Made by a program: the position numbers and the translations under genes | In this document: positions 1,781-53,778 of the stretch, in pieces | How the letters are laid out: each line of letters starts with the position of its first letter | How positions within the stretch are numbered: position 1 is the stretch's first letter | Assembly (NCBI GenBank): GCA_016218305.1 | Contig: JACREJ010000025.1 | Coordinates: forward strand, 243-64,242 | DNA: 64,000 nucleotides | Source: Gemmatimonadota bacterium | Lineage (GTDB): Bacteria; Gemmatimonadota; Gemmatimonadetes; Gemmatimonadales; Gemmatimonadaceae | Direction of reading: 5' to 3' | The notes under the pieces: model-generated | What the model saw: only the letters and a program-made list of their open reading frames with translations | The model's database searches: none | What the model was told of the DNA's origin: nothing

Positions 1781-2943
1781 CGCCCCTCCAGGGCTGCGTC
1801 GTACGCCGCGCGGTACCGCGTGCCCACCGCTTCGGGCGAGAAGGTGGCGAGCGCACGCACACGCGCGGCCGCACCATACGCGCGCGCCTTGGTCGGACGC
1901 TCGACGACGCCGTCGACGGCATGCGCCAGCGCGGCGACGTCGCCCGTGGGGATGAGCCAGCCGGTGGCGCCGTCGCGCACGACATCGGTGAGGCCGCCGC
2001 TCGCGTAGGCGATGACCGGGGTCTCGCACAGCGCGGCCTCGACGCCGACGAGCCCGAGCCCTTCCTCGGTGGACGGGATGATCAGCGCCGCGCTGCGCGC
2101 GTAGAGCGCCGGCAGCTCCGACTGCGGCAGGTGGCCGAGCCAGGTAATGCGATCGGCGACCCCCAAGGACTCGGCGCGCCGACGCAGCGCCTCGGCGTCG
2201 GGCCCCTCACCCACGACGTCGAGCGTCCAGGCGCGGCGGGCACGCGCCATCGCCTGAAGGAGGTCGGCGAGCCCCTTCTGCGCGTTGAGGCGGCCGACAA
2301 AGAGCATCCGGTCCTTCTCGTGCGCATCGGGCGCGGGCGGCGTGAAGAGCGCCGTGGCCGCGGGCATCGGCGCCGTCTCCACGCTGCGGCCGCCGAGCGC
2401 CTCGCGTGCCATGCGGGCGAGCCAGCCGGAGACGGCGTACATCCCGGCCGATTGCCGTGCGACGCGCTGGAAAAGCGTGCGCGCCCTCGCGCCGCGGGCG
2501 AGCCGGATGTCGGAGCCGTGGCTGGTGATGATCATCGGGACGCCGTGACCGCCGCCCATCATCCCCGACGGGAACCACCAGTGCGCGTGCACGAGGTGCG
2601 GCCGCCACGCCCGCACCGCGGCACCCACGGCGCGGCGCCCACGCCAGAGCATGAGCGCGAGCGCGAGCTTGCCGCGCAGCGAGCCGCTCACCTGCTCCGC
2701 CATCGTGCCGGTGTACGCCAACGTCTCCCACGCGCTCGGTGCGTACCGATAGCGGCGCACGCGGATGCCTTCAATGGTGTCGCTGGCGGCGAGTCCTGGC
2801 GCGGCGGGGGTGAGCACCTCCACCTCCACGCCCTCGCGCTGCACGGCGCGGGCGAGCGCGAGCACGAACGCGCCCGCCGCATCCCCGGCCTGCCGGGGGA
2901 ATGCGTGCGTCACGAAGAGGACCCGCAGCGGCGCGCGTGTCAC
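1777..2943 (-). CDS. Glycosyltransferase, group 1 (GT4)
   Basis: 388 aa. LRVLFVTHAFPRQAGDAAG N-terminus and a C-terminal EGLGLVGVEAALCETPVIA...GG motif of the GT-B EX7E type. GTG start 2943 overlaps the upstream stop (GTGA). Confidence 0.85.
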   Translation of the reverse strand: MTRAPLRVLFVTHAFPRQAGDAAGAFVLALARAVQREGVEVEVLTPAAPGLAASDTIEGIRVRRYRYAPSAWETLAYTGTMAEQVSGSLRGKLALALMLWRGRRAVGAAVRAWRPHLVHAHWWFPSGMMGGGHGVPMIITSHGSDIRLARGARARTLFQRVARQSAGMYAVSGWLARMAREALGGRSVETAPMPAATALFTPPAPDAHEKDRMLFVGRLNAQKGLADLLQAMARARRAWTLDVVGEGPDAEALRRRAESLGVADRITWLGHLPQSELPALYARSAALIIPSTEEGLGLVGVEAALCETPVIAYASGGLTDVVRDGATGWLIPTGDVAALAHAVDGVVERPTKARAYGAAARVRALATFSPEAVGTRYRAAYDAALEGR

Positions 2944-3890
2944 TCCGCGGGCGGTTGGGTGCCTTCGTCAATGCGGCGGCGCAGCTCGCGCAGTTCGGCG
3001 CGCTGCACCGCGATCTGTTCGCCCAGGAGGCCGGTGGAGAAGAAGATGCCGCCGAGGATGAGGCAGGTCTGGATGATGGTCCACACCGATCGCACGCCGA
3101 CGTTCTCCGTGAAGAGCATGTACAGCGCGACGAGTCCGGCGATGAACCCGGCGGCGAACAGCAGCGCCCCCAGCATCCCGAAGGCGAGCAGCGGCTTCTG
3201 GCCGAAGCGCAGCTCGAACCAGACCGACAGCATGTCGAGCACGCCCACCGGAATGCGCCCGATGCCGAACTTCGACTTGCCCGCGGCGCGGGGATAGAGC
3301 GGCACGGGGATCTCGGTGACCGTGAATCCCTGCTGCGCAGCAAGCACGATCATGTAGCGGTGCCAGTCGGGGCGCGACGGCTGCAGCTCCATGATCTCGC
3401 GGCGATACGCCTTGACGTTGTTGAGGTCCTTGACCTTCACGTCGAACAGGGCGCGGCTGAGCCCGTTGTAGATGCGGGAGACGAAGGCCTTCTCGTACTT
3501 CCCCTGCTTGAACCCCGTCACCATGTCGCTCTCGCCGGCGAGGATCGGCGCCACGAGCCGCGGAATGTCTTCCGGCATGAACTGGAGGTCGGCCGGATAG
3601 AAGACGAGGATGTCGCCGCGCGCCTGCAGGAAGCCGGTGCGGAGGGCGTCGGCGATGCCGCGACGGGCGCGGTGCCGCGCGGCGCGCAGGAACGGGTACA
3701 GCGAGCGGAGCTCCTGCAGCAACGCCCACGAGCCGTCAGTCGAGCCGTCGTCGATGACGATCACCTCGTACCGCTCGGGGCGGTCCGCAAAGGCCTTCGC
3801 GCACAGTTCGAGGAAGTGCGGCAGGTTCTCCGCCTCATCCTTGGCGGGCACCAGAACCGAAACGGCTACTGCAGGCGTTGGCACGGACAC
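2940..3890 (-). CDS. GT2 polyprenol-phosphate glycosyltransferase (GtrB/ArnC/DPM1-like) with two C-terminal TM helices
   Basis: 316 aa. VSVLVPAKDEAENL, VIVIDDGSTDGS and a DxD-like region, followed by two hydrophobic helices at the C-terminus. GTG start at 3890. Confidence 0.85.
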   Translation of the reverse strand: MSVPTPAVAVSVLVPAKDEAENLPHFLELCAKAFADRPERYEVIVIDDGSTDGSWALLQELRSLYPFLRAARHRARRGIADALRTGFLQARGDILVFYPADLQFMPEDIPRLVAPILAGESDMVTGFKQGKYEKAFVSRIYNGLSRALFDVKVKDLNNVKAYRREIMELQPSRPDWHRYMIVLAAQQGFTVTEIPVPLYPRAAGKSKFGIGRIPVGVLDMLSVWFELRFGQKPLLAFGMLGALLFAAGFIAGLVALYMLFTENVGVRSVWTIIQTCLILGGIFFSTGLLGEQIAVQRAELRELRRRIDEGTQPPAE

Positions 3891-3965
3891 GGTAGGGGCA
3901 CGGAAAGGGTCAGGGAACGAGGAGAAGTGGCTGGCATGGCCTCGGGCACGGGCACGGTCGGGCGC

Positions 3966-8289: not shown

Positions 8290-8933
8290 TCGGTCCCCGG
8301 CACCTTGACGCCGCGCGCCTTGGCGCGCGACCCGCGGAGAATGCGCAGGTTGTTCATGTCCGGGTCGGACACAAAGCCGACACCGCTCGCCTCGCGCCCT
8401 TCCTCGGTCAGCACGAAGGCGCTGTCCGAGGAGATCTGGTTGACGCGCGAGTCGAACTTGATTTGCTCGGTCTCGAGGCGGCGACCGTCGGCGGTGATGA
8501 TGACGACGTTCCCCCTGGCCTCGAGCACATTGTCGCGCGTCAGGTACCGTCCGGTGCGCGACGTGAGCACCGCGTCCTTGGCTCCCGCGGTGCTGTAGAA
8601 GATCGTGCGGACGACCTTCATGTCCATGCGCGTATTGTCGTCATAGAACAGCGCGGTATCGCTGAACACCTCGGCGCGGCGCAGGCCGCCTTCCGTGACC
8701 AGAGTGCGCGAGCCAAAGACCACCTGGTCGGCGTTCGGGTCCACCCCGCCCGCCCCTGCGGCGGTCTTCGGCGGCTTTGCCCGCTCGCAGGCCGCCAACG
8801 CGATGACGACGAGCACGGTCGCGACGCGAGCGAGGCGGCGAAACGTGACGGCGTGCTGCCGAGCGACTCGCGCACGGCTGTCCGCCGTCAGCCGCTCTGC
8901 CATCTGCCCTCTCCCATCTGCCATCTGCTTCAT
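8286..8933 (-). CDS. lptC: LptC-like LPS export protein (N-terminal TM anchor)
   Basis: ORF 8286..9989 trimmed to MKQMADGRGQMAERL... (ATG 8933..8931, ATGA overlap with the kdsD stop). TM helix VATVLVVIALAAC, then a LptC/OstA-like fold GNVVIITADGRRLETEQIKFD. An alternative start is at 8903. Confidence 0.65.
   Translation of the reverse strand: MKQMADGRGQMAERLTADSRARVARQHAVTFRRLARVATVLVVIALAACERAKPPKTAAGAGGVDPNADQVVFGSRTLVTEGGLRRAEVFSDTALFYDDNTRMDMKVVRTIFYSTAGAKDAVLTSRTGRYLTRDNVLEARGNVVIITADGRRLETEQIKFDSRVNQISSDSAFVLTEEGREASGVGFVSDPDMNNLRILRGSRAKARGVKVPGTE
8901..8928. repeat. Heptamer array (catctgc cctctcc catctgc catctgc) covering the first codons of lptC
   Basis: 4 x 7 nt. Here the G-rich strand (GCAGATG GCAGATG GGAGAGG GCAGATG) is the lptC sense strand and encodes KQMADGRGQM. 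Confidence 0.7.
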
Positions 8934-15679: not shown

Positions 15680-15740
15680 CGTGTTGAATTTAGTGGCCGG
15701 CGCACTGGCGTGTTCCCTGTTCCCTGCACTTCGACATGGG

Positions 15741-19303: not shown

Positions 19304-20149
19304 TCAGGCGGCGGGAAGGAAGACGAGCTTGCCCTGCGGGACCTTCCCCGCAAGCTCTAGACGACGGAAGAACTCGGAAAGTCCCTCGAGGTACTCGAGG
19401 CCGAGGCCATAATCGAGGCCGGCGAGGTACTCAAGGATGACGGGAGATGGGAGACGGGAGATGGGAGACGCCTCCTCAGCGATCGTCCCGAGGTTCGCGA
19501 GGCCCCACGCGCGGCTCTCCATCAGCGCGCCGTGCACCTGCAGGGCCTCACGCACGTTCACCTCACGGCGCGCCACCCAGACGGCGAAGACGAACGGAAG
19601 CCCCGTCCAGCGCTTCCACTCGGCGCCAAGGTCGTAGACGAACGGATAGTCGCGGCCGTGCGCGATGGCCACGGGATGTTCGCGATGCCGCAGCATCAGC
19701 GCCGCATCTCCAATGACCAGACGGGCCGCCACGGGCTCCTGGTCGCGCCGCAGGTCGTCGGCCTCCGTGTCGCCGGGCACAAAGGCGGGCTTCGCTTTCC
19801 AGACGTGCTCAAAGAGCAGCTCGAGCAGCGCCACGGACGTCATCGAGCTGCGGCTGACGAGCACGCGGGCCCCGTCCAGTTCGTGCGCGGGACGCGTCGA
19901 GAAGAGCATCACGCTGCGCACGTCGCCGTGGCATGAGATGGCCAGGTCCGGCAGCAGCAGGTACTTGCCCGCATCGCGCGCGTACTCGACCGCCGAGACG
20001 ACCGAGACGTCGATGGTGCCGTCGGCCATGCCGCGGTTCAGGACGGTCGGGACGCCGCTCACCAGCTCGGCGTCGAGCGTGACGATGCCGCGATCCACCG
20101 CGCCGTAAACCGGCGCGCAGTTGAGGTACGGGATGCGGCCGACGCGCAT
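19304..20149 (-). CDS. mqnA: Chorismate dehydratase MqnA
   Basis: ORF trimmed to MRVGRIPYLNCAPVY (ATG 20149..20147, 1-nt overlap TGATG with the upstream stop); 281 aa. Periplasmic-binding-protein-like fold signature typical of MqnA. Confidence 0.85.
   Translation of the reverse strand: MRVGRIPYLNCAPVYGAVDRGIVTLDAELVSGVPTVLNRGMADGTIDVSVVSAVEYARDAGKYLLLPDLAISCHGDVRSVMLFSTRPAHELDGARVLVSRSSMTSVALLELLFEHVWKAKPAFVPGDTEADDLRRDQEPVAARLVIGDAALMLRHREHPVAIAHGRDYPFVYDLGAEWKRWTGLPFVFAVWVARREVNVREALQVHGALMESRAWGLANLGTIAEEASPISRLPSPVILEYLAGLDYGLGLEYLEGLSEFFRRLELAGKVPQGKLVFLPAA
19443..19470. repeat. Perfect heptamer array (ggagatg ggagacg)x2 inside the mqnA coding region
   Basis: A 14-nt unit duplicated exactly, encoding ASPISRLPSPV on the minus strand. 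Four GGG tracts spaced by 4 nt. Confidence 0.85.
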
Positions 20150-21318
20150 CACGCCACCGCCGCCGCCACCGGCGCCGCGTCGAACGAGGTGCGCAGGATC
20201 CGGTAGAACGAGTCGCGCTCCGCCGGCGTCTTGCCGGCCCCACGGATGAGCGCGAGGATGGCATCGAGCGTCATCGCCTGCGGGGTATGCGCCCCCACGG
20301 CGTGGTAGATCTTCTCGCGGACCACCGTCCCCTCGAGGTCGTTCACGCCATAGTGCAGCGCCACCTGCGAGAGCGACGGCGTGACCATGATCCAGTGCGA
20401 CTTGATGTGCTGGAAGTTGTCGAGGAAGAGGCGCCCGACGGCGAGCTGGCGCAGGTCGTCCCATCCGCTCGTCGCGGTGCCCTGCCGCCCCAGCTCCCGG
20501 CCCAGCTCGTTGTCGTCGGGGTGGTACGCCAAGGGGATGTAGGCGAGGAAGCCGCCGGTCTCGTCCTGCAGGTCGCGCAGCATCTGCAGGTGCTCCAGGC
20601 GGTCGTCGAGCGTCTCCACATGGCCGTAGAGCATGGTGCAGTTGGTGCGGATGCCCAACTCGTGCGCCGTGCGATGCACGCCGATGTACTCCGCCCCCGC
20701 CAGCTTCTTGTCGGAGATGCGCTCCCGCACGGCCGCGCTGAACGTCTCGGCGCCGCCGCCCGGCATCGTGTCGAGCCCCGCGTCCTTGAGCGCCACGAGC
20801 ACGTCACGCCACGGCATCTTCTCGATGCGCGCGATGTGCGCAATCTCCACCGCGGTCAGCGCCTTGATGTGCACGTGCGGGAAGTTGGCCTTGAGCGCGC
20901 GGAACATCTCGGCGTAATAGGCGAGCCCCGCCTTCATGTCGAGCCCGCCCACGATGTGGAACTCGCGCGTCATGCCGTCGGCGGCGTGCGCCGCCTCGCC
21001 GAGCACCTGCTCGAGGGTGTAGCGGTACGCCCCCTCTTCCTTGGGCAGGCGCGCATAGCCGCAAAAGGTGCAGGTCTTTCGCAGCACGCAGATGTTCGTC
21101 GGGTTGATGTGCTGGTTCGACGCGAAGGTCACGACGTCGCCGTTCTTGGCCCGGTTCACGGCGTCGGCCAGCAGTCCCAGCCCCGCGAGGTCGCCGCTGC
21201 GGTAGAGCGCGAGGCCGTCGGTCGCGGTCAGCCGTTCACCGGCCGCTACCCGTTCACCAATGCGTCTTAAGACCGGATCGTGGATCCGGTCGAAGGGGAC
21301 CTGCGCCGTGGCGCCCAT
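20149..21318 (-). CDS. mqnE: Radical SAM futalosine-pathway enzyme, most like aminofutalosine synthase MqnE (non-canonical Cx5Cx2C cluster motif)
   Basis: 389 aa. HINPTNICVLRKTCTFCGYAR, HIVGGL, MPGGGAETF, MLYGHVET and LQDETGGFLAYIPL. Confidence 0.7.
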   Translation of the reverse strand: MGATAQVPFDRIHDPVLRRIGERVAAGERLTATDGLALYRSGDLAGLGLLADAVNRAKNGDVVTFASNQHINPTNICVLRKTCTFCGYARLPKEEGAYRYTLEQVLGEAAHAADGMTREFHIVGGLDMKAGLAYYAEMFRALKANFPHVHIKALTAVEIAHIARIEKMPWRDVLVALKDAGLDTMPGGGAETFSAAVRERISDKKLAGAEYIGVHRTAHELGIRTNCTMLYGHVETLDDRLEHLQMLRDLQDETGGFLAYIPLAYHPDDNELGRELGRQGTATSGWDDLRQLAVGRLFLDNFQHIKSHWIMVTPSLSQVALHYGVNDLEGTVVREKIYHAVGAHTPQAMTLDAILALIRGAGKTPAERDSFYRILRTSFDAAPVAAAVA

Positions 21319-23607: not shown

Positions 23608-23635
23608 GCAGACGGGAGACGGGAGATGGGAGATG
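23608..23635. repeat. Heptamer array (gcagacg ggagacg ggagatg ggagatg) in the fabG leader
   Basis: 4 x 7 nt, starting 6 nt upstream of the fabG ATG. The mRNA strand is CCATCTCCCATCTCCCGTCTCCCGTCTGC. Confidence 0.8.
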
Positions 23636-23664
23636 GCGGGTACGACGGGTTTCGTGGCGCGACG

Positions 23665-27348: not shown

Positions 27349-27350
27349 GT

Positions 27351-27379
27351 AAAGTAACCGGGGTGCGGCCTAGGGTCAA
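27351..27379 (-). promoter_or_regulatory. Sigma-70-type promoter of the yceD-rpmF-plsX-fab operon (abuts the start codon)
   Basis: Minus strand reads TTGACC-CTAGGCCGCACCCCGGT(17)-TACTTT, followed by AC then ATG GCT ATG. Confidence 0.45.
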
Positions 27380-27407
27380 GTTCTGGAATGGCTGATACTT
27401 AGCGCTC

Positions 27408-27553
27408 CTGAACCACCACCACGAGGAGCGAAGGGCGCGAAGGGCCGCGAAGCAGGTCCTACTAATGACCCAATTCGCCGTACCTGTCGCGCCCGACCAG
27501 GCGTCTCCCCCGCCTTCGCGCCCCGTCGTGCCCTTCGACCTTCGCGGTTGAAG
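27408..27553. repeat. REP/MITE-like palindromic element, copy A (imperfect ~40-nt inverted arms around a ~60-nt core)
   Basis: Left arm ctgaaccaccaccacgaggagcgaagggcgcgaagggccgcgaag. Right arm ccttcgcgccccgtcgtgcccttcgaccttcgcggttgaag, which ends on the base before the ndk stop codon. Confidence 0.7.
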
Positions 27554-27973: not shown

Positions 27974-28007
27974 GGTCGTTGATTGCCTGAGGTTGGGGGG
28001 GAGACTC

Positions 28008-28100
28008 CCACCACCAAGGTCGAAGGGCGCGAAGGGCCGCGAAGGCTGCCGTGCCATGCACGTCCTTCGTGTCCCTTCGCGTCCTTCGTCCTTCGCGGTA
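28008..28100. repeat. REP/MITE-like palindromic element, copy B
   Basis: cccaccaccaaggtcgaagggcgcgaagggccgcgaagg, an 18-nt loop, then ccttcgtgtcccttcgcgtccttcgtccttcgcggta. It lies between the sucD stop and the ndk start. Confidence 0.7.
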
Positions 28101-28111
28101 GACGTTACAAA

Positions 28112-30126: not shown

Positions 30127-30197
30127 GGGAACTCCGTGGGAGATGTCCGCGGCGCCGTCTGGCGCCGGTCGAAAACAACGTGCGAAATTTACCGCAG

Positions 30198-30218
30198 GGA
30201 GAGGGGCGACGGGAGTGC
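30198..30218. repeat. Degenerate G-rich heptamer array (ggagagg ggcgacg ggagtgc)
   Basis: Three 7-nt units related to the GGAGAYG family, in the sucC leader / UPF0182 3' region. Confidence 0.4.
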
Positions 30219-30234
30219 GCGCGCCCCGCGGATC

Positions 30235-35643: not shown

Positions 35644-37227
35644 TTATCGCGCCGTGTTGGAGGCGGAGGCCGGCGCCGTATTCGCGCTGGCCTCGACGTA
35701 CGTGACCAGGCGCCGTGCGGCGGCCTCGGTCTTCTCGAGCACCGGCTTGGGATAGACACCCATCCAGACGATGGCGATGAGCAGCGGCACAAGCAGCCCG
35801 ATTTCCCGCCAGTTGAGATCCTTGATGGTCTCGTTCTCCGGCTTGGACAGCTTGTTGTAGATGATCCGCTGCAGCGCCCACAGCAGGTAGGCCGCGGCAA
35901 AGATGACGGCCGTGGCCGAGATGACGGCGGCCACCGGCTGGGTCTTGTACGCGCCGACGAGCACCAGGAACTCGCCGATGAAACCGTTGGTCCCCGGCAC
36001 GCCGATGCTGCTCAGCGAGACGATGGTGAGGATGGTGGCGAAGATCGGCACCACCTTGGCGATGCCGCCGTAGTCCTCGATCATGCGCGTGTGCCGCCGC
36101 TCGTAGATCATGCCGACGAGAAGGAACAGCGCGCCCGTGGAGACGCCGTGGTTGATGTTCACCATCAGCGCGCCCTGCATCGACTCGACCGTGAGCGAGA
36201 AGATGCCGAGCATCACGAAGCCGAGGTGGCTGACGGACGAATACGCCACCAGCTTCTTGAAGTCCGGCTGCACCATGGCCACGAGGGCGCCGTACACGAT
36301 GCCGATGACCGCGAGGACGATGATCAGGTTGCGCACCGCGGGATTCATGGCGGCGCTCGGGAAGAGCGGCAGCGCGAACCGGATGAAGCCGAACGTGCCC
36401 ATCTTCAGCATGATCGCGGCCAGGATCACCGAGCCGGCCGTGGGCGCCTCGACGTGCGCGTCGGGCAACCAGGTATGGAACGGGAACATCGGCACCTTGA
36501 CCGCGAACGCGAGCGCGAACGCGCCGAAGAGCCAGAGCGTCGTCGTCGGGTCGAGGTGGACGTTGTTCAGGATGAAGTCGTAGCTGAAGTTCGGCGCACC
36601 GGCCACCCGCGACGCCTCGGAGCCGAGGTACAGGATGGCGACCAGCATGAGCAGCGAGCCGATCATAGTGTAGATGAAGAACTAGATCGCCGCGTAGAGC
36701 CGCCGTTCCCCGCCCCAGACGCCGATGATCAGGTACATCGGCACCAGCATGATCTCCCACATCACGTAGAAGAGCACGAGATCGAGCGCCACGAAGACGC
36801 CGAGCATGCCAATGGTCAGGAACAGCAGCATCACGTAGTAGGCGTGCGGCTTGGTGCGGATGCTGGTCCAGCTGCCGAGCACGGCCAGCGGCATCATCAG
36901 CGTGGTGAGCAGCACGAGCATCATCGAGATGCCGTCGAGCCCCACCGAGAACCGGACGCCCCACTGCGGAATCCACGGCAGGTCCACCGCCGCCTGCCAG
37001 CCCGCGGCCGCCGGATCGATGGACCACCAGAGTCCGAGGGAGAGGATGGCCTCCGCCATGAAGAAGGCGAAGGCGAGGACGCGCACTTCACGCCAGCGCT
37101 TGTCGGCCGGGTCCTTGGCCGTCAGGAGCGCATGCGCCCACAGCCCGGCCGCGCCGAACAGCGGCAGCAGCAGCAGGACCGGAACGATCCAGGCGTTGTA
37201 ATTGATCGACGACAGGAACGCGGTCAT
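35644..37227 (-). pseudogene. nuoM: NADH-quinone oxidoreductase subunit M interrupted by one in-frame TAG (36684..36682); fragments 36682..37227 (181 aa) and 35644..36666 (340 aa)
   Basis: The minus strand reads ...CTC TAC GCG GCG ATC TAG TTC TTC ATC TAC ACT ATG ATC GGC = LYAAI*FFIYTMIG. Both fragments are in the same frame and together form a full-length NuoM/ND4. Confidence 0.85.
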
Positions 37228-42064: not shown

Positions 42065-43590
42065 GCGGTCACCCCCGCTCCGGCCGCCATCTGGCCCTTG
42101 AGTCCAAGCGAGTCATAGCTCATTCCGCTGAAGGCGGCCTCGGCCTTGGCCATCGCGGTAAAGACCGCCTCGGCCGAGTCGTACGCGCCGGGCTTCCCGG
42201 CTGCCGCGGCGAGACCCGCGAGCGCCATCCAGCTGGCGCGCGCCATCCCGGGCGCGGGGCGTGCCTGCAGGTAGCGCTGCGTGCGCCCGCGCAGGTTCGT
42301 GAAGGTCCCTTCCTCTTCCGCGAAATTCGCGATCGGGAGGAGGATGGCGCCGGCCGGCAGCCCCGTGGGCGCCACCGTGCCGATGAAGATCACCGCGCTG
42401 GCGCCGGACAGCGCCGACGTGTCGAGTCCGTCGCAGTCGTCGCCCGCGATCACCACCACCTTGCCCGCGCCCGCGAGCGGCTGGTCGGCGCGGCTGAAGC
42501 CGAGCATCTCCGCACCCGTCGCATTCGGGGCGCGGTCGGCGCGCAGCGCGAGGTCCTTGACGCCCGGCAGCGGCGCCTCGGCCCCCTTGGCGACGCGGAA
42601 CTTGCCCGTCCCCGCCGCCTGCTTGAGCAGCCAGAGCGCTTCATTGGACATGGATGCGCTGGCCACGACGTGCGCGCTGGCGCCCTTGAGCGCGGCGCCG
42701 GCGGCGGACAGGGCCGCCTCCCACGAAGCCAGCTTCCCTGCAACGACCGGCGTCTCGAGCCGATCATCGCGGTTGATCCACTGGTAGTTGAGGCGGCCCT
42801 CGTCGCACATGTAGTACTGGTTGACGTCGGCGTTGGACCGCGGCTTCATCCGCACCACGTTCCCGTCGCGCGTCTCCAGCGTGACGTTGCAGCCCTGCGA
42901 GCAGTTGGGGCAGACCGACGCCGTGCGGTCGAGCTCCCACGCGCGTGCCTTGTTCAGGAAGTCCTTGCTGACCAGCGCGCCCACCGGGCACAGGTCGATC
43001 ACGTTGGCCGCCCAGGGGTGCGTCAGGTCGTGGTCGGGCGCGATGCCGATGCGCGCGCGATCGCCGCGCTCCTCCACACAGAGCGCCTCGTCACCGGCGA
43101 CATCGTCCATGAAGCGAACGCAGCGCGTGCAGAGGATGCAGCGGTTGGTGACGTACATGACGTCGCCGCCGAAGTCCTCGGCCGGGTTGAAGCGCTTCGG
43201 CTCGTGATACCGCGAGTCGGCGCGCCCTTCCTGGAAGGTGTAGTCCTGCAGCTCGCACTCGCCGGCCTGGTCGCAGATCGGGCAGTCGAGCGGATGGTTG
43301 ATGAGGAGCAGCTCGAGCACGCCCTTGCGGGCGTCGAGCGCCTTCTGGCTGTAGACATGCACCACCTGTCCCTCACCGACGGTCGTCGCGCAGGACGGCG
43401 CCAGCTTCGGGAACTTCTCCACTTCCACGAGGCACATGCGGCAGACGCCCGCGATCTTGAGCCCGGGGTGGTAGCAGTAGTGCGGGATGAGCACCCCGGC
43501 GGTCTTGGCCGCCTCGAGGATGGTCGTCCCCTCGGGGACGCTGACCGCGCGTCCCTCGATGGTCAGGGTGATGAGCTTCGGGTCGGTCAT
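42061..43590 (-). CDS. nuoG: NADH-quinone oxidoreductase subunit G (short form)
   Basis: ORF trimmed to MTDPKLITLTIEGRAV (ATG 43590, 1-nt overlap with the nuoF stop). 2Fe-2S and 4Fe-4S Cys motifs (CYHPGLKIAGVCRMC; HPLDCPICDQAGEC; CILCTRCVRF; CPVGAL); 509 aa. Confidence 0.92.
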   Translation of the reverse strand: MTDPKLITLTIEGRAVSVPEGTTILEAAKTAGVLIPHYCYHPGLKIAGVCRMCLVEVEKFPKLAPSCATTVGEGQVVHVYSQKALDARKGVLELLLINHPLDCPICDQAGECELQDYTFQEGRADSRYHEPKRFNPAEDFGGDVMYVTNRCILCTRCVRFMDDVAGDEALCVEERGDRARIGIAPDHDLTHPWAANVIDLCPVGALVSKDFLNKARAWELDRTASVCPNCSQGCNVTLETRDGNVVRMKPRSNADVNQYYMCDEGRLNYQWINRDDRLETPVVAGKLASWEAALSAAGAALKGASAHVVASASMSNEALWLLKQAAGTGKFRVAKGAEAPLPGVKDLALRADRAPNATGAEMLGFSRADQPLAGAGKVVVIAGDDCDGLDTSALSGASAVIFIGTVAPTGLPAGAILLPIANFAEEEGTFTNLRGRTQRYLQARPAPGMARASWMALAGLAAAAGKPGAYDSAEAVFTAMAKAEAAFSGMSYDSLGLKGQMAAGAGVTA

Positions 43591-44900
43591 CAGGCCGTCA
43601 CCGCCACGGTGGATGAGCGCTTGCCGGAGATCAGCGCCTCGAACTCGCCGCGGAAGCGCGTAATGCCGCTGCACACGGGCGCGCCGCACGAGTCGCTGAG
43701 CACGCAGATGGTCTTGCCGGTCATGTTCTCGGTCAGCTCGAAGATCGTGTCGAGGTCCTCGTACGTCCCCTGACCCGCCACGATGCGCTCGAGGATCTTG
43801 GTCATCCACGCGGTGCCTTCGCGGCACTGCGTGCACTGCGCGCAGCTCTCGTGCGCGTAGAACCGCGCGAGCCGGGCGAGCTGCTTGGGCATGGACTGCG
43901 CGTCGTCGAAGATGATGACGCCGCCGGAGCCCAGCATCGTGCCGAACTCCATGAAGCCCTCATAGTCCATCTTGACCTGCTCGGCTTCCTCGATCGTGAT
44001 CACCGGCACCGACGACCCGCCGGGGATGATCGCCTTGAACTTCCGGCCCGGCAGCGGTCCGCCGCACAGGTCGTACAGGAATTCCTTGAACGAGAAGCCC
44101 ATCGGCACTTCGTAGTTGCCGGGGCGCGCCACGTTGCCGCAGACCGAGAAGAGCTTGCTGCCGGTGCTCTTGGGGCTGCCGAGGCACATCGCCTTGTACC
44201 ACTCGGCGCCGTTGTTGAGGATGTGCGGCACCGCGGCCAGGGTCTCGACGTTGTTGACGGTCGTCGGCATGCCGAAGACGCCCGCCACCGCCGGGAAGGG
44301 CGGCTTGATGCGCGGATTGCCGCGGCGCCCCTCGATGGAGTTCATGAGGGCGGTCTCTTCGCCGCAGATGTACGCGCCGGCGCCGCGATGCACCCACATG
44401 TTGATCGTCTTGCCCGAGCCGCAGGCGTTGGGGCCGATCATCCCGGCCGCGCGCGCCTCGTCCAGCGCCTTCTCCATGACGGCGATGGGCTCGGTGAACT
44501 CGCCGCGGATGTAGATGTAGGTCGTCTCGGCACCGATTGCGTGCGCGGCAATCGCGCATCCCTCGATGAGCTGGTGCGGCGTCCACCGCATGATCTCGCG
44601 GTCCTTGAACGTTCCCGGCTCGGACTCGTCGGCGTTGCAGCACAGGTAGTGCGGCTTGCCGTCGTTCAGCTTCATGAACGACCACTTGAGGCCGGTCGGG
44701 AAGCCGGCGCCGCCGCGACCGCGCAGCCCGGATTCCTTGACGACGTTCTGGATGGCCACCGGGTCGGTGGCCAGCGCCTGCGGCAGCGCCTTATAGCCGC
44801 CGCGCGCCTTCCACCCCTCCAGCGTGCGTGCCTCGGGGTCGCCGAAGTACTTGCTGAGGATCGGTGTTTCGCGCGGATGGCTCTTGTGTGGATAGCCCAT
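43590..44900 (-). CDS. nuoF: NADH-quinone oxidoreductase subunit F
   Basis: 436 aa. GRGGAGFPTGLKW, the FMN/NADH site and a SCAQCTQCREG cluster. Confidence 0.97.
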   Translation of the reverse strand: MGYPHKSHPRETPILSKYFGDPEARTLEGWKARGGYKALPQALATDPVAIQNVVKESGLRGRGGAGFPTGLKWSFMKLNDGKPHYLCCNADESEPGTFKDREIMRWTPHQLIEGCAIAAHAIGAETTYIYIRGEFTEPIAVMEKALDEARAAGMIGPNACGSGKTINMWVHRGAGAYICGEETALMNSIEGRRGNPRIKPPFPAVAGVFGMPTTVNNVETLAAVPHILNNGAEWYKAMCLGSPKSTGSKLFSVCGNVARPGNYEVPMGFSFKEFLYDLCGGPLPGRKFKAIIPGGSSVPVITIEEAEQVKMDYEGFMEFGTMLGSGGVIIFDDAQSMPKQLARLARFYAHESCAQCTQCREGTAWMTKILERIVAGQGTYEDLDTIFELTENMTGKTICVLSDSCGAPVCSGITRFRGEFEALISGKRSSTVAVTA

Positions 44901-44903
44901 AGT

Positions 44904-44931
44904 TCAGACGGGAGACGGGTGACGGGAGACT
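44904..44931. repeat. G-rich heptamer array (tcagacg ggagacg ggtgacg ggagact) in the nuoF leader
   Basis: 4 x 7 nt, 3 nt upstream of the nuoF ATG. The mRNA strand is C/T-rich (AGTCTCCCGTCACCCGTCTCCCGTCTGA). Confidence 0.75.
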
Positions 44932-44946
44932 TGCCCTACGAGGTAC

Positions 44947-44990
44947 TGTTGTCTCTCTGTTGTTTCTCTGTTGTCTCTCTGTTGTTTCTC
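44947..44990 (-). repeat. 11-nt tandem repeat array (GAGARACAACA x4) starting directly after the nuoE stop
   Basis: Plus strand tgttgtctctc tgttgtttctc tgttgtctctc tgttgtttctc. About 40% GC in a ~67% GC context. Confidence 0.9.
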
Positions 44991-45542
44991 TTACGCGTAC
45001 TGCTTGAGTATCTCCGGCACCTTCTCCACGCTCACGCTGTCGATGAAGTCGTTGTTGATCATGATTGGCGTCGCAAACCCGCACGCCCCTAAGCACTCGA
45101 CTTCTATCACCGTGTACTTGCCGTCAGCCGACGTCAGGCCGAGCTCACCGCAGCCGGTCTTCTCGAGGAAGGCCTTCACCACGTCCTCGGCGCCCATGCA
45201 ATTGCAGCAGGACGTCGTGCAGACCTGGATGAAGTACTTCCCCACTGGATGCTGGTGGTACATGGTGTAGAACGTCACCACGCCCTTGACGTAGGCGGCG
45301 GTGAGGCCGAGCACGTCGCCGACTTCCTTCATCGCGTGCTCGCTGACCCAGCCGCGCTCGTCCTGCACGATCCACAGCGCGGGCAGCAAGCCGGCCTGCT
45401 TGGTGGGATAGCGCGTCAGGATGTCGTCGAGCTTGGCGCGCGGCGCCGACCCGGCCGTGAAGACCGGCACATACGGTTCGTCGTGGTGCCCGTGCGCTGG
45501 CTGCGCTACTGCCCCGCCGGATGCTGATGGTCCGTGGCTCAT
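44991..45542 (-). CDS. nuoE: NADH-quinone oxidoreductase subunit E
   Basis: 183 aa. 2Fe-2S motif CTTSCCNCMG...CLGACG. Confidence 0.95.
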   Translation of the reverse strand: MSHGPSASGGAVAQPAHGHHDEPYVPVFTAGSAPRAKLDDILTRYPTKQAGLLPALWIVQDERGWVSEHAMKEVGDVLGLTAAYVKGVVTFYTMYHQHPVGKYFIQVCTTSCCNCMGAEDVVKAFLEKTGCGELGLTSADGKYTVIEVECLGACGFATPIMINNDFIDSVSVEKVPEILKQYA

Positions 45543-45559
45543 GCGTCCCCTCGCCCGTC

Positions 45560-45603
45560 TGTTGTCTCTCGGTTGCTTCTCTGTTGTCTCTCTGTTGTCT
45601 CTC
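45560..45603 (-). repeat. 11-nt tandem repeat array (GAGAGACAACA-type x4) starting directly after the nuoD stop
   Basis: Plus strand tgttgtctctc ggttgcttctc tgttgtctctc tgttgtctctc. It abuts the nuoD TGA (45606..45604) and ends 17 nt before the nuoE ATG. Confidence 0.9.
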
Positions 45604-46911
45604 TCACCGATCGATCTCTCCCATCACGATGTCGATCGACGCATTGATGGCAATCACGTCGGATAGCAGGTGCCCCTCGACCATCTTGGGAATGGCCGAG
45701 AGGTTCACGAACGACGGGGGCCGGATGCGCCAGCGCACCGGCTTGGCCGTGCCGTCCGACACCATGTAGTAGCCCTTCTCCCCCTTGGGGGCCTCGACGG
45801 CCACGTACGACTCGCCGATGGCCGGGCGCGGTCCTTCCATCACGTTCTTGAAGTGATGGATCATGCTCTCCATCTCGCTCGTCGCCTTGTGCTTGGGCGG
45901 CAGGATGACGCGCGGGTCGTCCACGTTCACCGGGCCGTCGGGAAGGCGGGCGATGGCCTGCTCAATGATGCGCACGGACTGCCGCATCTCCTCCATGCGC
46001 ACGAGGTAGCGGTCGTACACGTCGCCGTGCACGCCCACCGGCACCTCAAAGTCGTACGTCTCGTAGTCGAGATACGGGAAGTCCTTGCGGACGTCGTAGT
46101 CCACGCCCGACGCGCGCAGCATCGGGCCCGAGAGGCCGTAGTTGAGCGCCTCCTCGGGGTTCATCACGCCCAGCCCCACCGTGCGGCCCACCCAGATGCC
46201 GTTGCGCGTCAGCATGCGGTCGCACTCGCTCAGCGTCTTCGGGAACGTGCGGACGAAGGCCTTGAGCCCGTCGAGCCAGCCGTCGGGAATGTCGGCGGCC
46301 ATCCCGCCCACGCGCGAGGCGCTCGTCGTGAGGCGCGCGCCCACCCACCCCTCGAACAGGTTGTAGATGTTCTCGCGCTCCTGGAACGACCACAGGAACG
46401 GCGTGAAGGCGCCGATGTCGATGCCCGTCGTCCCCATCCAGACCAGGTGCGACGCAATGCGCGACAGCTCCATGCCGATGACGCGCAGCACGGTGCAGCG
46501 CGGCGTGATCTCGATGCCGAACAGCTTCTCGGCGCCGAGGGAGAAGGCGATGTTGTTGCCGACGCAGTTCAGGTAGTCGTCGCGGTCGGTCCAGGGAATG
46601 ATCTGGTTGTACTGGCGGTACTCGCCGATCTTCTCGAAGCCGCAATGCAGGTAGCCGATGTGCGGGATGCACCGCACCACCGTCTCGCCGTCGAGCTCGA
46701 GCACGAGGCGGAGCACGCCGTGCGTCGCCGGATGCTGCGGCCCGATGTTGATGAGCATGTGCTCGCCCTCGAGCTCCGGCTCGAGCGCGGGCGGCGCCTG
46801 CAGGGCGAGGCCGCCGGTGTCGCCGGCGACGAGCGGAATGCGCTGCGGCTTGCCGTCGGCGCCGAGGCCGGTGGTCGAGAGTTCGACTTCAATCGTGCGC
46901 TTGGTGGCCAT
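45604..46911 (-). CDS. nuoD: NADH-quinone oxidoreductase subunit D
   Basis: 435 aa. NIGPQHPATHGVLRL motif, with SD-like GGGAGAA upstream. Confidence 0.97.
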   Translation of the reverse strand: MATKRTIEVELSTTGLGADGKPQRIPLVAGDTGGLALQAPPALEPELEGEHMLINIGPQHPATHGVLRLVLELDGETVVRCIPHIGYLHCGFEKIGEYRQYNQIIPWTDRDDYLNCVGNNIAFSLGAEKLFGIEITPRCTVLRVIGMELSRIASHLVWMGTTGIDIGAFTPFLWSFQERENIYNLFEGWVGARLTTSASRVGGMAADIPDGWLDGLKAFVRTFPKTLSECDRMLTRNGIWVGRTVGLGVMNPEEALNYGLSGPMLRASGVDYDVRKDFPYLDYETYDFEVPVGVHGDVYDRYLVRMEEMRQSVRIIEQAIARLPDGPVNVDDPRVILPPKHKATSEMESMIHHFKNVMEGPRPAIGESYVAVEAPKGEKGYYMVSDGTAKPVRWRIRPPSFVNLSAIPKMVEGHLLSDVIAINASIDIVMGEIDR

Positions 46912-46914
46912 CGG

Positions 46915-47610
46915 CTATTCTCCCGTGGACTCGCCGCCCTTGATGCGGGCGCGCATGTCGAGCGGAAGCTCCTGGAAGGCGTCGGCGATGGAGAGTTCTT
47001 CCATCGAGTACCGGGCCTCGGGGTTGGCGGCGAGCGCCTGGCGCAGCTGCTCGGCGCGGCTGAGGCGCCCACGGAGCGGGAAATCCTTGCGGAGCGGGAA
47101 TCCTTCCGTGTACTGCTCCCACAGCAGGATGCGCCGCAGGTCGGGGTGCCCCTCGAAGACGATGCCGAACATGTCGTAGCACTCGCGCTCGAGCCAATCG
47201 GCGCCTTTGTAGACCGACCAGACCGACGCGATCTTGAGCGGCTGTCCCTTGGCCAGCGGCGCCTTGAGGCGCAGGAAGCGGCGGTACTTGATGGAGCGCA
47301 GGTGCCAGATCACCTCGATCGGCATGCCGCGATCACGGAACTCCACCGCCGTGACATCGGAGAGGTACTCGTAGCTCTGCGACGGGTCGTCGTGCAGCCA
47401 GCGCACGATGTCGAGGGCGCGGGCGGGGTCGATCGTGACGTTCGTCTCGCCCCACACGACGTCCACCCGCAGGATGGCGGCGCCGAACTGGGCCTTGAGC
47501 GCCTCGGCGGAGGGGTTCGCGTCGCCGCCGCGATGCGGCACGTTCTTGGGCGTCGCGGGCGTCGGCAGTCCCGGCGCCGACCCCGACTGGATCACCGTGA
47601 AGGCGCTCAC
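46915..47610 (-). CDS. nuoC: NADH-quinone oxidoreductase subunit C
   Basis: ORF trimmed to GTG 47610 (GTGA overlap with the nuoB stop). [24 protein letters not shown] motif; 231 aa. Confidence 0.9.
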
Positions 47611-49466: not shown

Positions 49467-49476
49467 GACTTCCCTG

Positions 49477-49540
49477 CCACCACGAAGTACGAAGGGCGCG
49501 AAGGGGCGCGATGGGCTCGCTTGTGCGGCGGGCCCTTTCC
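49477..49540. repeat. REP/MITE-like element, copy C (one well-conserved arm, degenerate partner)
   Basis: ccaccacgaagtacgaagggcgcgaaggggcgcgatggg ... gggccctttcc, starting 11 nt after the dcd TAG. Confidence 0.55.
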
Positions 49541-49556
49541 ACACGGGGGAACTGCC

Positions 49557-50051
49557 ATGCAATTGAAACGCTGCTCAGCGTCTGCCGCGCTACTTGTCGC
49601 CGTGTGCGCGTGGTCCGCGAGCGCCCAGTCTCCACGCTCGCCCGACGAAGCCGCCGCCATCGCCGCCGCCGACTCTCTCCTCGCCGCACTGTCACGCGAC
49701 GACAAGGCGGCGCTGGCCCGCTTCACCACGGATTCCGCCATCCTCGGCTATTCCGCGATTCGCGGCGGTGCGGAGCGTGTACGCGTGCACTCGGTGGCAG
49801 AGGTGCTCGCGCAGCCGTCCTCCGTGCGCATCACCGAACGCGGATTCGGCGCCACCGCGCGCGTCCAGGACCGACTGGCTCAGGTCTGGATGCCGTACGA
49901 CATCTACATCGACGGCAAGTGGTCGCACTGCGGCATCGATGCCTTCACGCTGCTGAAGATCGCCGGCCACTGGCGCGTGGCCTCGCTGTTCTACACGGTC
50001 GAGCAACCGCCGGCGTGCCAGCCGCACCCCGCCGGACCGCCCGGGCGCTGA
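49557..50051 (+). CDS. Secreted NTF2-like/SnoaL-like (DUF4440 or lumazine-binding-type) protein
   Basis: ORF trimmed to MQLKRCSASAALLVAVCAWSASAQ (signal peptide). C-terminal ...VWMPYDIYIDGKWSHCGIDAFTLLKIAGHWRVASL pattern of the NTF2-like cone fold. Confidence 0.55.
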   Translation: MQLKRCSASAALLVAVCAWSASAQSPRSPDEAAAIAAADSLLAALSRDDKAALARFTTDSAILGYSAIRGGAERVRVHSVAEVLAQPSSVRITERGFGATARVQDRLAQVWMPYDIYIDGKWSHCGIDAFTLLKIAGHWRVASLFYTVEQPPACQPHPAGPPGR

Positions 50052-53562: not shown

Positions 53563-53591
53563 AACGTAGCACACGACTGCCGGGGCGTCAG
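53563..53591 (-). promoter_or_regulatory. Possible promoter of the S9 peptidase-serpin unit
   Basis: Minus strand reads CTGACG-CCCCGGCAGTCGTGTGC(17)-TACGTT. The -10 is identical to that of the HU/IHF gene promoter; the -35 matches 4/6. Confidence 0.3.
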
Positions 53592-53601
53592 CCACCGTCT
53601 A

Positions 53602-53699
53602 CTTCAACCACGAAGACCGAAGGGCGCGAAGGGGCGCGAAGAAGGGCTCACCTAGGCGGTGAGCCCTTCGCGCCCTTCATTCCCTTCGCGCCTTCGCGA
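53602..53699. repeat. REP/MITE-like palindromic element, copy D (most symmetric copy)
   Basis: cttcaaccacgaagaccgaagggcgcgaaggggcgcgaagaagggctcacc-taggc-ggtgagcccttcgcgcccttcattcccttcgcgccttcgcgat. The inner 9-bp stem is perfect. Confidence 0.75.
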
Positions 53700-53778
53700 T
53701 GTCTGTTGTCGTTGCGGTTCCCTGCCCCCAACCCCCGCACCACACCCTGTTCCCTGCCTCCTGAACCGGAGAGCGGCT

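Follow-up and report, generated by a model that had tools for sequence, protein, structure and literature searches.

The subject of this study is a pair of short tandem arrays that bracket nuoE, a gene of the complex I (nuo) operon, in a 64-kb stretch of DNA from a Gemmatimonadota bacterium, referred to here as the window. Both arrays are on the minus (mRNA) strand, each consists of four copies of the 11-nt unit GAGARACAACA (44 nt) in the same orientation, and each starts with the base that follows a stop codon (offset 0), at the coordinates given in the initial annotation of this DNA. The genes concerned are nuoD (45604..46911, -), nuoE (44991..45542, -; 183 amino acids, 2Fe-2S thioredoxin-like), and nuoF (43590..44900, -), in which Pfam identifies Complex1_49kDa, 2Fe-2S_thioredx, and Complex1_51K domains, respectively; the NuoE of the window is nearest to Gemmatimonadaceae proteins. 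The D-E array (45603..45560) is directly 3' of the nuoD TGA (45604-45606) and reads GAGAGACAACA GAGAGACAACA GAGAAGCAACC GAGAGACAACA, the third copy, GAGAAGCAACC, being degenerate; a 17-nt spacer, GACGGGCGAGGGGACGC (45543..45559, -), which includes the Shine-Dalgarno (SD)-like motif GAGGGG 7 nt past the end of the array, separates it from the nuoE ATG (45542). The E-F array (44990..44947) is directly 3' of the nuoE TAA (44991-44993) and reads GAGAAACAACA GAGAGACAACA GAGAAACAACA GAGAGACAACA, that is, (GAGAAACAACA GAGAGACAACA)x2. The spacer between it and the nuoF ATG (44900) measures 46 nt (44901-44946) rather than the 43 nt first reported and contains, as had been noted, a C-rich heptamer array, GTCTCCC GTCACCC GTCTCCC GTCT in the mRNA sense (44906..44930, -; AGACGGG on the plus strand), which stops 5 nt before the nuoF start; the central spacer GTACCTCGTAGGGCAA (44931..44946, -) lies between the purine array and the heptamer array. 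No SD-like motif is present upstream of nuoF, and its leader is C-rich. With gaps of 61 nt (D-E) and 90 nt (E-F), these are indeed the only sizeable gaps in the operon: the other junctions from nuoA to nuoN range from -11 to +3 nt, with the exception of 15 nt located after an in-frame TAG in nuoM.

Within the window, the nuo arrays rank among the top scores of Tandem Repeats Finder, which reports 44946-44991 at period 11 (4.2 copies, score 78) and period 22 (100% matches, score 92) and 45558-45604 at period 11 (4.3 copies, score 59) and period 22 (score 73). The exact unit occurs seven times in the 64 kb, every time within these two arrays and never as an isolated copy, and each 11-nt unit contains ACAACA, with two ACA motifs. 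The arrays had been described as purine/CA-rich, almost free of U, and about 40% GC in a genome of about 67% GC; they are indeed rich in purines and ACA, neither contains any T in the sense strand, and the GC content is 41% in the E-F array and 48% in the D-E array, the window as a whole being 68.1% GC. It follows from the absence of T that neither array can provide an ATG, GTG, or TTG codon or any stop codon in the sense direction and that self-pairing is impossible on the mRNA; the minimum free energy (MFE) of each array alone is 0 kcal/mol. The full nuo junctions are no more structured than shuffled sequences on the sense strand (z = +0.49, -1.10, +1.61, -0.54), and likewise have no significant structure on the antisense strand (z = -0.14, -1.28, +0.22), so that the earlier description of the arrays as unstructured holds (MFE 0, junction z from -1.1 to +1.6). 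No GC-rich stem-loop followed by a U-rich tract, the layout of an intrinsic terminator, is found at the nuo junctions, no GC hairpin or reverse-complement partner array lies beside the nuo copies on either strand, and no promoter-like or terminator-like site is seen across 43500-47000.

Pairing of the E-F purine array with the heptamer array as a regulatory hairpin is ruled out by the sense values of +0.49 and +1.61, and a strand-specific antisense terminator formed through G.U pairs is ruled out by the three antisense values. Long-range pairing of AGACGGGCGAGGGG, upstream of nuoE, with the CCCGTCT repeats upstream of nuoF, which would enclose nuoE, was a sequence-level idea that is not conserved, and it was dropped because relatives without a D-E array have no G-rich partner. 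The arrays also place nuoE and its 17-nt leader (44947-45603) between 44-bp direct repeats that are identical at 39 of 44 positions, a possible substrate for recombinational deletion or duplication of the gene.

The dispersed family of 11-nt arrays

A scan of one genome per species with the pattern GAGARACAACAGAGARACAACA returned at least 107 blocks of 8 kb (810 kb), and the family counts given below refer to the matches listed from that scan. At least 172 arrays are present in these blocks, from at least 7 metagenome-assembled genomes (MAGs). The family is restricted to Gemmatimonas-type genomes: seven MAGs labeled as Gemmatimonas, Gemmatimonadaceae, or Gemmatimonadota account for 104 of the 107 blocks (5-25 per MAG), and the other three are in differently labeled bins, two of which share samples with Gemmatimonadota MAGs and are probably mis-binned, binning errors being possible in a census of MAGs. 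The copy number is 4 in 96 of the 172 arrays (56%, 44 nt) and ranges from 2 to 11, and exact units occur nearly always within arrays (578, versus 2 isolated units in the 810 kb). At least 14 array sites are common to different genomes; the copy number is equal at seven of them, where it is always 4, and differs at the other seven, from 3 to 11. A rigid 44-nt mobile unit with position-specific variants was considered and rejected, the R at unit position 5 being free to vary in all four copies. Seven viral contigs from IMG/VR (L197-L203, 41-47% GC) contain (GAGAGACAACA)n followed by the related 11-mers GAGAGACGATA and GAGAGGCAGCA, and the viral 11-mer appears to be an open reading frame (ORF) that continues from a hydrophobic segment. 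A phage origin was rejected in view of the GC content of these contigs and the ORF-like context of the array, which seems unrelated to the Gemmatimonas family.

Among the listed arrays, 43 are paired with a reverse-complement array, (TGTTGTYTCTC)n, located 13-99 nt away, and all 43 inverted pairs have the same order, with a purine array on the 5' side, a GC-rich hairpin in the center, and a pyrimidine array on the 3' side. In the paired form, the whole space between two gene ends is a near-perfect hairpin of 100-130 nt; for two elements of this kind, the folding energies are -103.7 and -82.6 kcal/mol (z = -17.5 and -11.0), and in two examples of a solo array with a GC hairpin behind it, z is -4.2 and -3.4. 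When arrays in short operon gaps are set aside, 71% of the 58-nt stretches downstream of an array reach a folding energy of -20 kcal/mol or lower, compared with 41% of random 58-mers from the same loci, and many fold below -30 kcal/mol. Nine sense arrays have the next start within 60 nt and are mostly without a hairpin, and the nuo copies represent this hairpin-less, operon-internal minority form (nine comparable cases). Hairpin-less intercistronic arrays are present in other operons at loci L015/L019, L072, L068/L109, and L066/L075, with copy numbers that differ between L019 and L015 (4 versus 8) and between L068 and L109 (4 versus 11). The central hairpins are specific to each locus and the arrays are common across loci; the arrays therefore look like add-ons that fill the space between the stop codon and a pre-existing, terminator-type hairpin. 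The canonical paired members have, in their sequence, the stem-loop and U-rich tract layout of intrinsic terminators. In this form, the U-rich tract would come from the pyrimidine version of the array (UGUUGUYUCUC), with the purine version providing the A-rich complement that serves the other direction; the canonical arrays may represent the two arms, one A-rich and one U-rich, of terminator-like (bidirectional) structures at 3' ends.

The arrays are closely anchored to stop codons, as judged from gene calls made in the window and in the family loci with a purpose-built codon-usage model trained on the nuo genes. When the upstream gene has the same orientation (110 listed arrays), the array starts within 10 nt of the stop in 93 cases, between -6 and +3 nt of it in 65, and at offset 0 or -1 in 40; all cases of offset -1 consist of TA plus the first G of the array. 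Forty-eight of 76 elements are no more than 3 nt from a stop, compared with 13.8 expected for uniform placement in the gap, a number reached in none of 20,000 simulations. All 32 single sense arrays in co-directional gaps are nearer to the stop than to the next start (median distances of 0 and 123.5 nt, respectively). Sense arrays outnumber antisense arrays in co-directional gaps (36 versus 14, p = 0.003), and the pyrimidine array of an antisense case tends to finish 0-10 nt ahead of a start codon. TAG and TAA make up 78% of the stops beside arrays, compared with 53% for other genes of the same loci (p about 1e-5). Miniature inverted-repeat transposable elements (MITEs) combine terminal inverted repeats with a target-site duplication; the paired 11-mer elements have inverted arms, the solo arrays are without inverted ends, and no consistent duplicated flank indicative of a target-site duplication is present at 43 pairs and 86 singles, TA being found only on the stop-codon side.

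The nuoE borders in related genomes

Orthologous nuoD-E-F loci were gathered by exact-protein look-ups, the genome pattern scan, and a metagenome scan with NuoE. The independent assemblies have arrays at the same sites, and the nuo arrays are therefore not an artifact of assembly or slippage, a possibility raised when they were first described. At the E-F junction, the 11-mer is present in four copies in the window, in L115 (NuoE identity 96%), and in L014 (92% nucleotide identity), in five copies in L003 (NuoE identity 94%), and in two copies in L116 (93%) and L117 (95%); it is absent from L001 (93%) and from L005 (82%), which has instead five copies of a 10-nt unit, GAGTACGACA. The pyrimidine array before nuoF is present in all of these loci, only its beginning being visible at the contig end in L115; it is found in more relatives than the 11-mer, and the sequence of its unit drifts. 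The central spacer is retained in L003, L014, and L115 (GTACC..TAGGGC) and has no significant structure. Among the relatives compared, the D-E 11-mer array is found only in the window, L115, and L117. The D-E junction of L003 is an ATGA overlap, those of L001 and L005 contain a 31-nt unique spacer, and those of L014 and L116 contain a degenerate GACAGAGTRA array, of the same unit family as the E-F array of L005. In L115, the D-E array is located exactly between the TGA and ACGCCGAG, the sequence that opens the array-less spacer of L005, and the 3' part of the 17-nt spacer in the window resembles the end of the 31-nt spacer in array-less relatives (L115 GTACGCCGAGGGGACGC versus L005 ACGCCGAGCGCGAGAACTCGAGAGTGCACGC).

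More distant relatives (66-75% identity) most often have nuoD overlapping nuoE (-4) and nuoE either overlapping nuoF (-1) or separated from it by 3 nt, an arrangement that would correspond to tight translational coupling. The nuoD-E and nuoE-F pairs were ancestrally overlapping (ATGA, or -1) and would have been translationally coupled. The same two junctions contain unrelated units in other scattered lineages, including GATGGGA x3, GGGGTAC x3 with TCTGCAT x4, and GTCTTCCC x3, and in some cases are filled by full inverted pairs (CGGGAAT x4 ... ATTCCCG x4); the polarity in those lineages places the purine-rich arm beside the stop and the pyrimidine-rich arm beside the start. Gaps of more than 12 nt are found at 35 of 79 D-E junctions, 30 of 81 E-F junctions, 1 of 54 C-D junctions, and 12 of 43 F-G junctions, and none of the 12 F-G gaps contains an array. 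Among the operon junctions compared, array expansion recurs across the family only at the two borders of nuoE, which would be the permissive junctions of the nuo operon.

Interpretation of the nuo arrays

We consider it likely that the nuo operon contains two solo copies, without a hairpin, of a dispersed repeat that is restricted to Gemmatimonas-type bacteria and has four copies (44 nt) as its ground state, and that they are present there as inert spacers and not as a device for NuoE/NuoF expression. The distribution in relatives suggests that the E-F junction was colonized first and the D-E junction later, in the sublineage of the window, and that the arrays, as inert single-stranded spacers, would have turned overlapping junctions into spaced ones. 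Translation of nuoE would then initiate from its own GAGGGG, and the single-stranded ACA-rich stretch ahead of it could be a ribosome standby site; nuoF would initiate from a C-rich heptamer leader typical of an SD-poor lineage. In gaps without 11-mer arrays (window and L008-L114), the 30 nt before start codons are pyrimidine- and C-rich (purine fraction 0.44, n = 347, p about 6e-21), with a weak purine bump where an SD sequence would lie, which suggests that initiation is largely SD-independent in this lineage; the nuoF leader fits this genome-wide habit, and nuoE keeps its GAGGGG. As a secondary matter, nuoE may be subject to a standby or enhancer effect, which is physically plausible, and any effect on NuoE/NuoF output would be a by-product or an exaptation of a generic element and not the reason for it.

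Several points weigh against this interpretation. We infer both termination by the paired form and the inertness of the nuo copies from sequence. The abutment to stop codons, the bias toward TAG and TAA, the sharp mode at four copies, and the sense bias suggest either constraint or a specific insertion mechanism. The recurrent expansion of the D-E and E-F junctions, when the C-D junction is expanded in 1 of 54 cases and the F-G junction is without arrays, could reflect selection on NuoE/NuoF translation rather than tolerance, and the E-F array is kept in six of seven close lineages.

It is possible, though on the whole doubtful, that the arrays, with or without the hairpin, are a non-autonomous mobile or copy-paste element that inserts preferentially right behind a stop codon, in the first bases, and that the copies in nuo are neutral passengers without a function. 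The presence of identical units at at least 170 unrelated loci with a discrete 44-nt mode is what such an element would leave, as is the comparison of the filled D-E site of L115 with the empty site of L005, which indicates insertion exactly between the TGA and an older spacer; the TAG/TAA bias of the adjacent stops points in the same direction. The pneumococcal BOX, RUP, and SPRITE repeats are likewise enriched at gene 3' ends and between convergent genes and have been read as mobile (PMC3049150). However, a target-site duplication is not apparent, the solo arrays lack terminal inverted repeats, and the persistence of arrays at at least 14 orthologous site groups across species indicates that turnover is not very fast. 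This explanation concerns the origin of the arrays and is compatible with their being inert spacers in nuo.

A further explanation, based on the proposal of the initial annotation, sees in the arrays unstructured CA/purine-rich spacers that serve as enhancers of translation, as standby sites, or as platforms for binding and that were selected specifically to set NuoE/NuoF stoichiometry. The arrays are strictly single-stranded, the D-E array ends just ahead of the nuoE GAGGGG, nuoE borders the sole operon junctions that are recurrently expanded, and structure-free landing sites could matter in a lineage with SD-poor leaders. The general premise, that CA multimers enhance translation in Escherichia coli, is sound, since CA-rich tails and ACA motifs near a ribosome binding site (RBS) raise translation in that organism (PMC5934652). 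Its extension to an enhancer dedicated to nuoE and nuoF is not supported, because the element is generic: it is present at at least 170 other sites, mostly at gene 3' ends, followed by a terminator-like hairpin or between convergent genes, and often with no downstream cistron. Neither is the array conserved at orthologous junctions, being absent from most, which are overlaps, varying from 0 to 5 copies among close relatives, and being replaced by unrelated units in other lineages, which is largely the pattern that the initial annotation had itself said would refute its proposal. Furthermore, 46 nt, including an array of another kind, lie between the E-F array and the nuoF AUG, and 14 of the 50 arrays in co-directional gaps are antisense. 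Selection for a role in setting NuoE/NuoF stoichiometry is therefore regarded as unlikely.

Control on a genome-wide scale, in which post-stop arrays bind the distal face of Hfq, ribosomal protein S1, or a lineage-specific factor and so act as RNA-binding-protein or small RNA platforms for mRNA stability or translation, is very unlikely. The distal face of Hfq recognizes A-R-N triplets, and the sequence AAC AAC AGA offers three of these per unit; the single-stranded character of the arrays, their sense bias (36 versus 14), and their constant length (44 nt in 56% of the listed arrays) would also suit a platform. In 43 pairs, however, the array is fully base-paired with its complement, which would mask the sites, and antisense copies exist. 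It is scarcely plausible that the arrays act as DNA, with 11-bp units (one helical turn) binding a nucleoid or replication protein or bending the DNA and with the position relative to translation signals being incidental; several of the array families in these genomes do have units of 9-11 bp, but heptamer families behave alike, and the stop abutment and strand polarity point to RNA or translation constraints or to an insertion mechanism. That each array is a local microsatellite produced by replication slippage in place and unrelated to the others can hardly be entertained, given that, although copy number varies between orthologous sites and other lineages have, at the same junctions, many different units of 7-11 nt, one 11-nt unit is present at at least 172 sites in at least 7 genomes with 2 isolated units as possible seeds, the lengths have a sharp mode at four copies rather than a decaying distribution, and polarity and stop abutment are fixed.

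If the nuo arrays are inert copies of the dispersed repeat, they should not be read as a purpose-built regulator; a generic element would have broken two ancestrally coupled complex I junctions. The wider interest lies in a seemingly undescribed repeat system of a poorly studied phylum, composed of intergenic, lineage-specific arrays with strict polarity that are anchored at stop codons and often form perfect hairpins of 100 nt or more. The family bears on transcript ends, on translation start in an SD-poor, high-GC lineage, and on the spread of repeats without obvious transposon features, and it may have practical use as a landmark in the annotation of gene 3' ends and as a source of variable-number tandem repeat-type markers for Gemmatimonas populations.

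Other repeats in the window and comparison with known systems

The heptamer array before nuoF belongs to a second dispersed family (AGAYGGG/CCCRTCT), other copies of which are located in the window at 8896-8928, in the purine sense and 3 nt after a stop (8929..8896), at 23610-23637, in the pyrimidine sense and ending 7 nt before an ATG, and at 19438-19472, within a called coding sequence (CDS; 19304..20152, -) in which it is translated as ...EEASPISRLPSPVILEYL.... The sequence CCCGTCTGAACT just upstream of nuoF (44901-44915, - strand) includes CCGTCTGAA, which forms the core of GCCGTCTGAA, the DNA uptake sequence of Neisseria; L003 also has ACCGTCTGAA, and the presence of the core at this position is probably a coincidence. 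Another family, with 9-10-nt units of the CGCGAAGGG type, is found at 53590-53720, 49467-49601, 27974-28111, and 27349-27553, where the repeats are followed by a short hairpin and then by complementary CCCTTCGCG repeats, the same layout as in the 11-mer pairs; the element at 53590-53720 folds at -78.9 kcal/mol (z = -7.5), and its unit is also present in L008 and L012. The related ACAACAGAC motif that was originally pointed out near 53701-53717 is real; it has the appearance of a decayed array end and lies directly 5' of a CGAAGGG-array hairpin. Further short-period intergenic repeats (15680-15740, 53700-53778, 3852-3965, and 30127-30234) include CAGGGAA x2, GTGCCC(G) arrays, and CTCCCGTCGCCCCTCTCCC, and the intergenic DNA of this genome is largely made of such arrays. 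In composite arrays at about 2720-2900 (-) of L070 and 5643-5850 of L113, an 11-mer array passes straight into a 9-nt unit (GAAACGACA / GAGACGACA), and in L113 the 9-nt arrays are followed by CCGTCCA heptamers, so that several unit families can be concatenated in one gap. AATCC/AATCG-rich periodic repeats (ATCGCCAATCGCAATCC...) are present downstream of 11-mer arrays in L037, L047, L052, L093, and L110 and reach the next start codon.

It is conceivable, if improbable, that an active, undescribed process in Gemmatimonadaceae writes lineage-specific 7-11-nt arrays onto the non-coding side of gene boundaries, with the purine strand running 5' to 3' away from the CDS and starting at the stop, either through a stop codon-targeted copy-paste element or through templated repeat addition at breaks (telomerase-like or by fold-back priming). 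If this were true, the cell would build giant bidirectional terminator hairpins with the written arrays as arms and would also employ such arrays as SD-independent leaders, and the arrays that flank nuoE would be fresh products of the process inside an essential operon.

With respect to the remaining genes of the window, 63 of the 65 called are on the minus strand, and Pfam confirms NuoC, D, E, F, G, H, L, and M. The in-frame TAG in nuoM (36682-36684, - strand; ...GCG ATC TAG TTC TTC ATC TAC ACT ATG...) divides the gene into ORFs of 181 and 340 amino acids in the same frame, and nuoM is a single ORF of 524-527 amino acids in L001 and L007; the TAG could represent a pseudogene, a sequencing or consensus error, or a site of read-through.

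The 11-mer arrays form a family of small interspersed intergenic repeats that is apparently undescribed, as had been suspected from the outset: the best Rfam match in the window region has an E value of 3, far below the gathering score, no match at the gathering score is obtained in four loci with canonical paired elements, and the literature searched on Gemmatimonas repeats or on the 11-mer motif contained nothing relevant. The DNA uptake sequences of Neisseria and the uptake signal sequences of Pasteurellaceae are mostly single copies spread over the genome, also inside genes, and their inverted pairs form terminators. They resemble the 11-mer in being short (10-12 nt), lineage-specific words that are often present as inverted pairs downstream of genes, but the 11-mer is nearly always found in tandem arrays. 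Mycobacterial interspersed repetitive units (MIRU) are about 46-101 bp in length, with small ORFs inside them that overlap the stop and start codons on either side and so maintain translational coupling. Like the nuo arrays, they are variable-number tandem repeats in intercistronic operon regions of a high-GC bacterium and are oriented with the operon, whereas the 11-nt unit has no start or stop codon and most members of its family are not intercistronic. The repetitive extragenic palindromic (REP) sequences of enterobacteria, and the bacterial interspersed mosaic elements (BIME) that contain them, are dispersed, intergenic, and often located at gene 3' ends or within operons; they are transcribed, form hairpins, and are present singly or in inverted clusters, the REP unit being an imperfect palindrome of about 35 nt without tandem sub-repeats. 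The 11-mer family is also dispersed and intergenic, at gene 3' ends or between operon genes, but its array has no self-complementarity (MFE 0).

With regard to translational enhancers, CA-rich single-stranded tails with an optimum of 16-18 nt, placed just upstream of the RBS, increase translation in E. coli by up to 9-fold over a reference construct (PMC5934652), and ACA motifs beside the yifK and dppA RBSs promote initiation, according to the account of PMC3879156 given in the same paper. In both cases, the RNA upstream of an RBS is single-stranded and C/A-rich, and the D-E array occupies the position in which a standby tail would act. However, these enhancers are defined functionally at single RBSs, whereas the anchor point of the 44-nt array is the upstream stop and not the downstream start, and a hairpin usually comes after it. 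The closest documented analogues of the 11-mer family are the pneumococcal SPRITE and BOX elements. SPRITE is a dispersed terminator-like repeat near CDS 3' ends, enriched between convergent genes, in which a long duplex is followed by a U-rich tract, and BOX contains a variable number of tandem boxB modules within a folding repeat (PMC3049150). All are small, dispersed, intergenic stem-loop repeats near CDS 3' ends and between convergent genes. In contrast to SPRITE and BOX, the arms of the 11-mer elements are themselves tandem arrays and the central hairpin is locus-specific and not part of the repeat; the arrays begin exactly at stops, and solo, hairpin-less arrays exist, also inside operons. 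The 11-mer family differs further in being without a terminus like boxA or boxC and in its host phylum, Gemmatimonadota, at 68% GC. The features that are distinctive of the 11-mer family are thus its tandem-array arms, the locus-specific hairpin, the anchoring to stop codons, the four-copy ground state, and the existence of parallel unit families of the same polarity.

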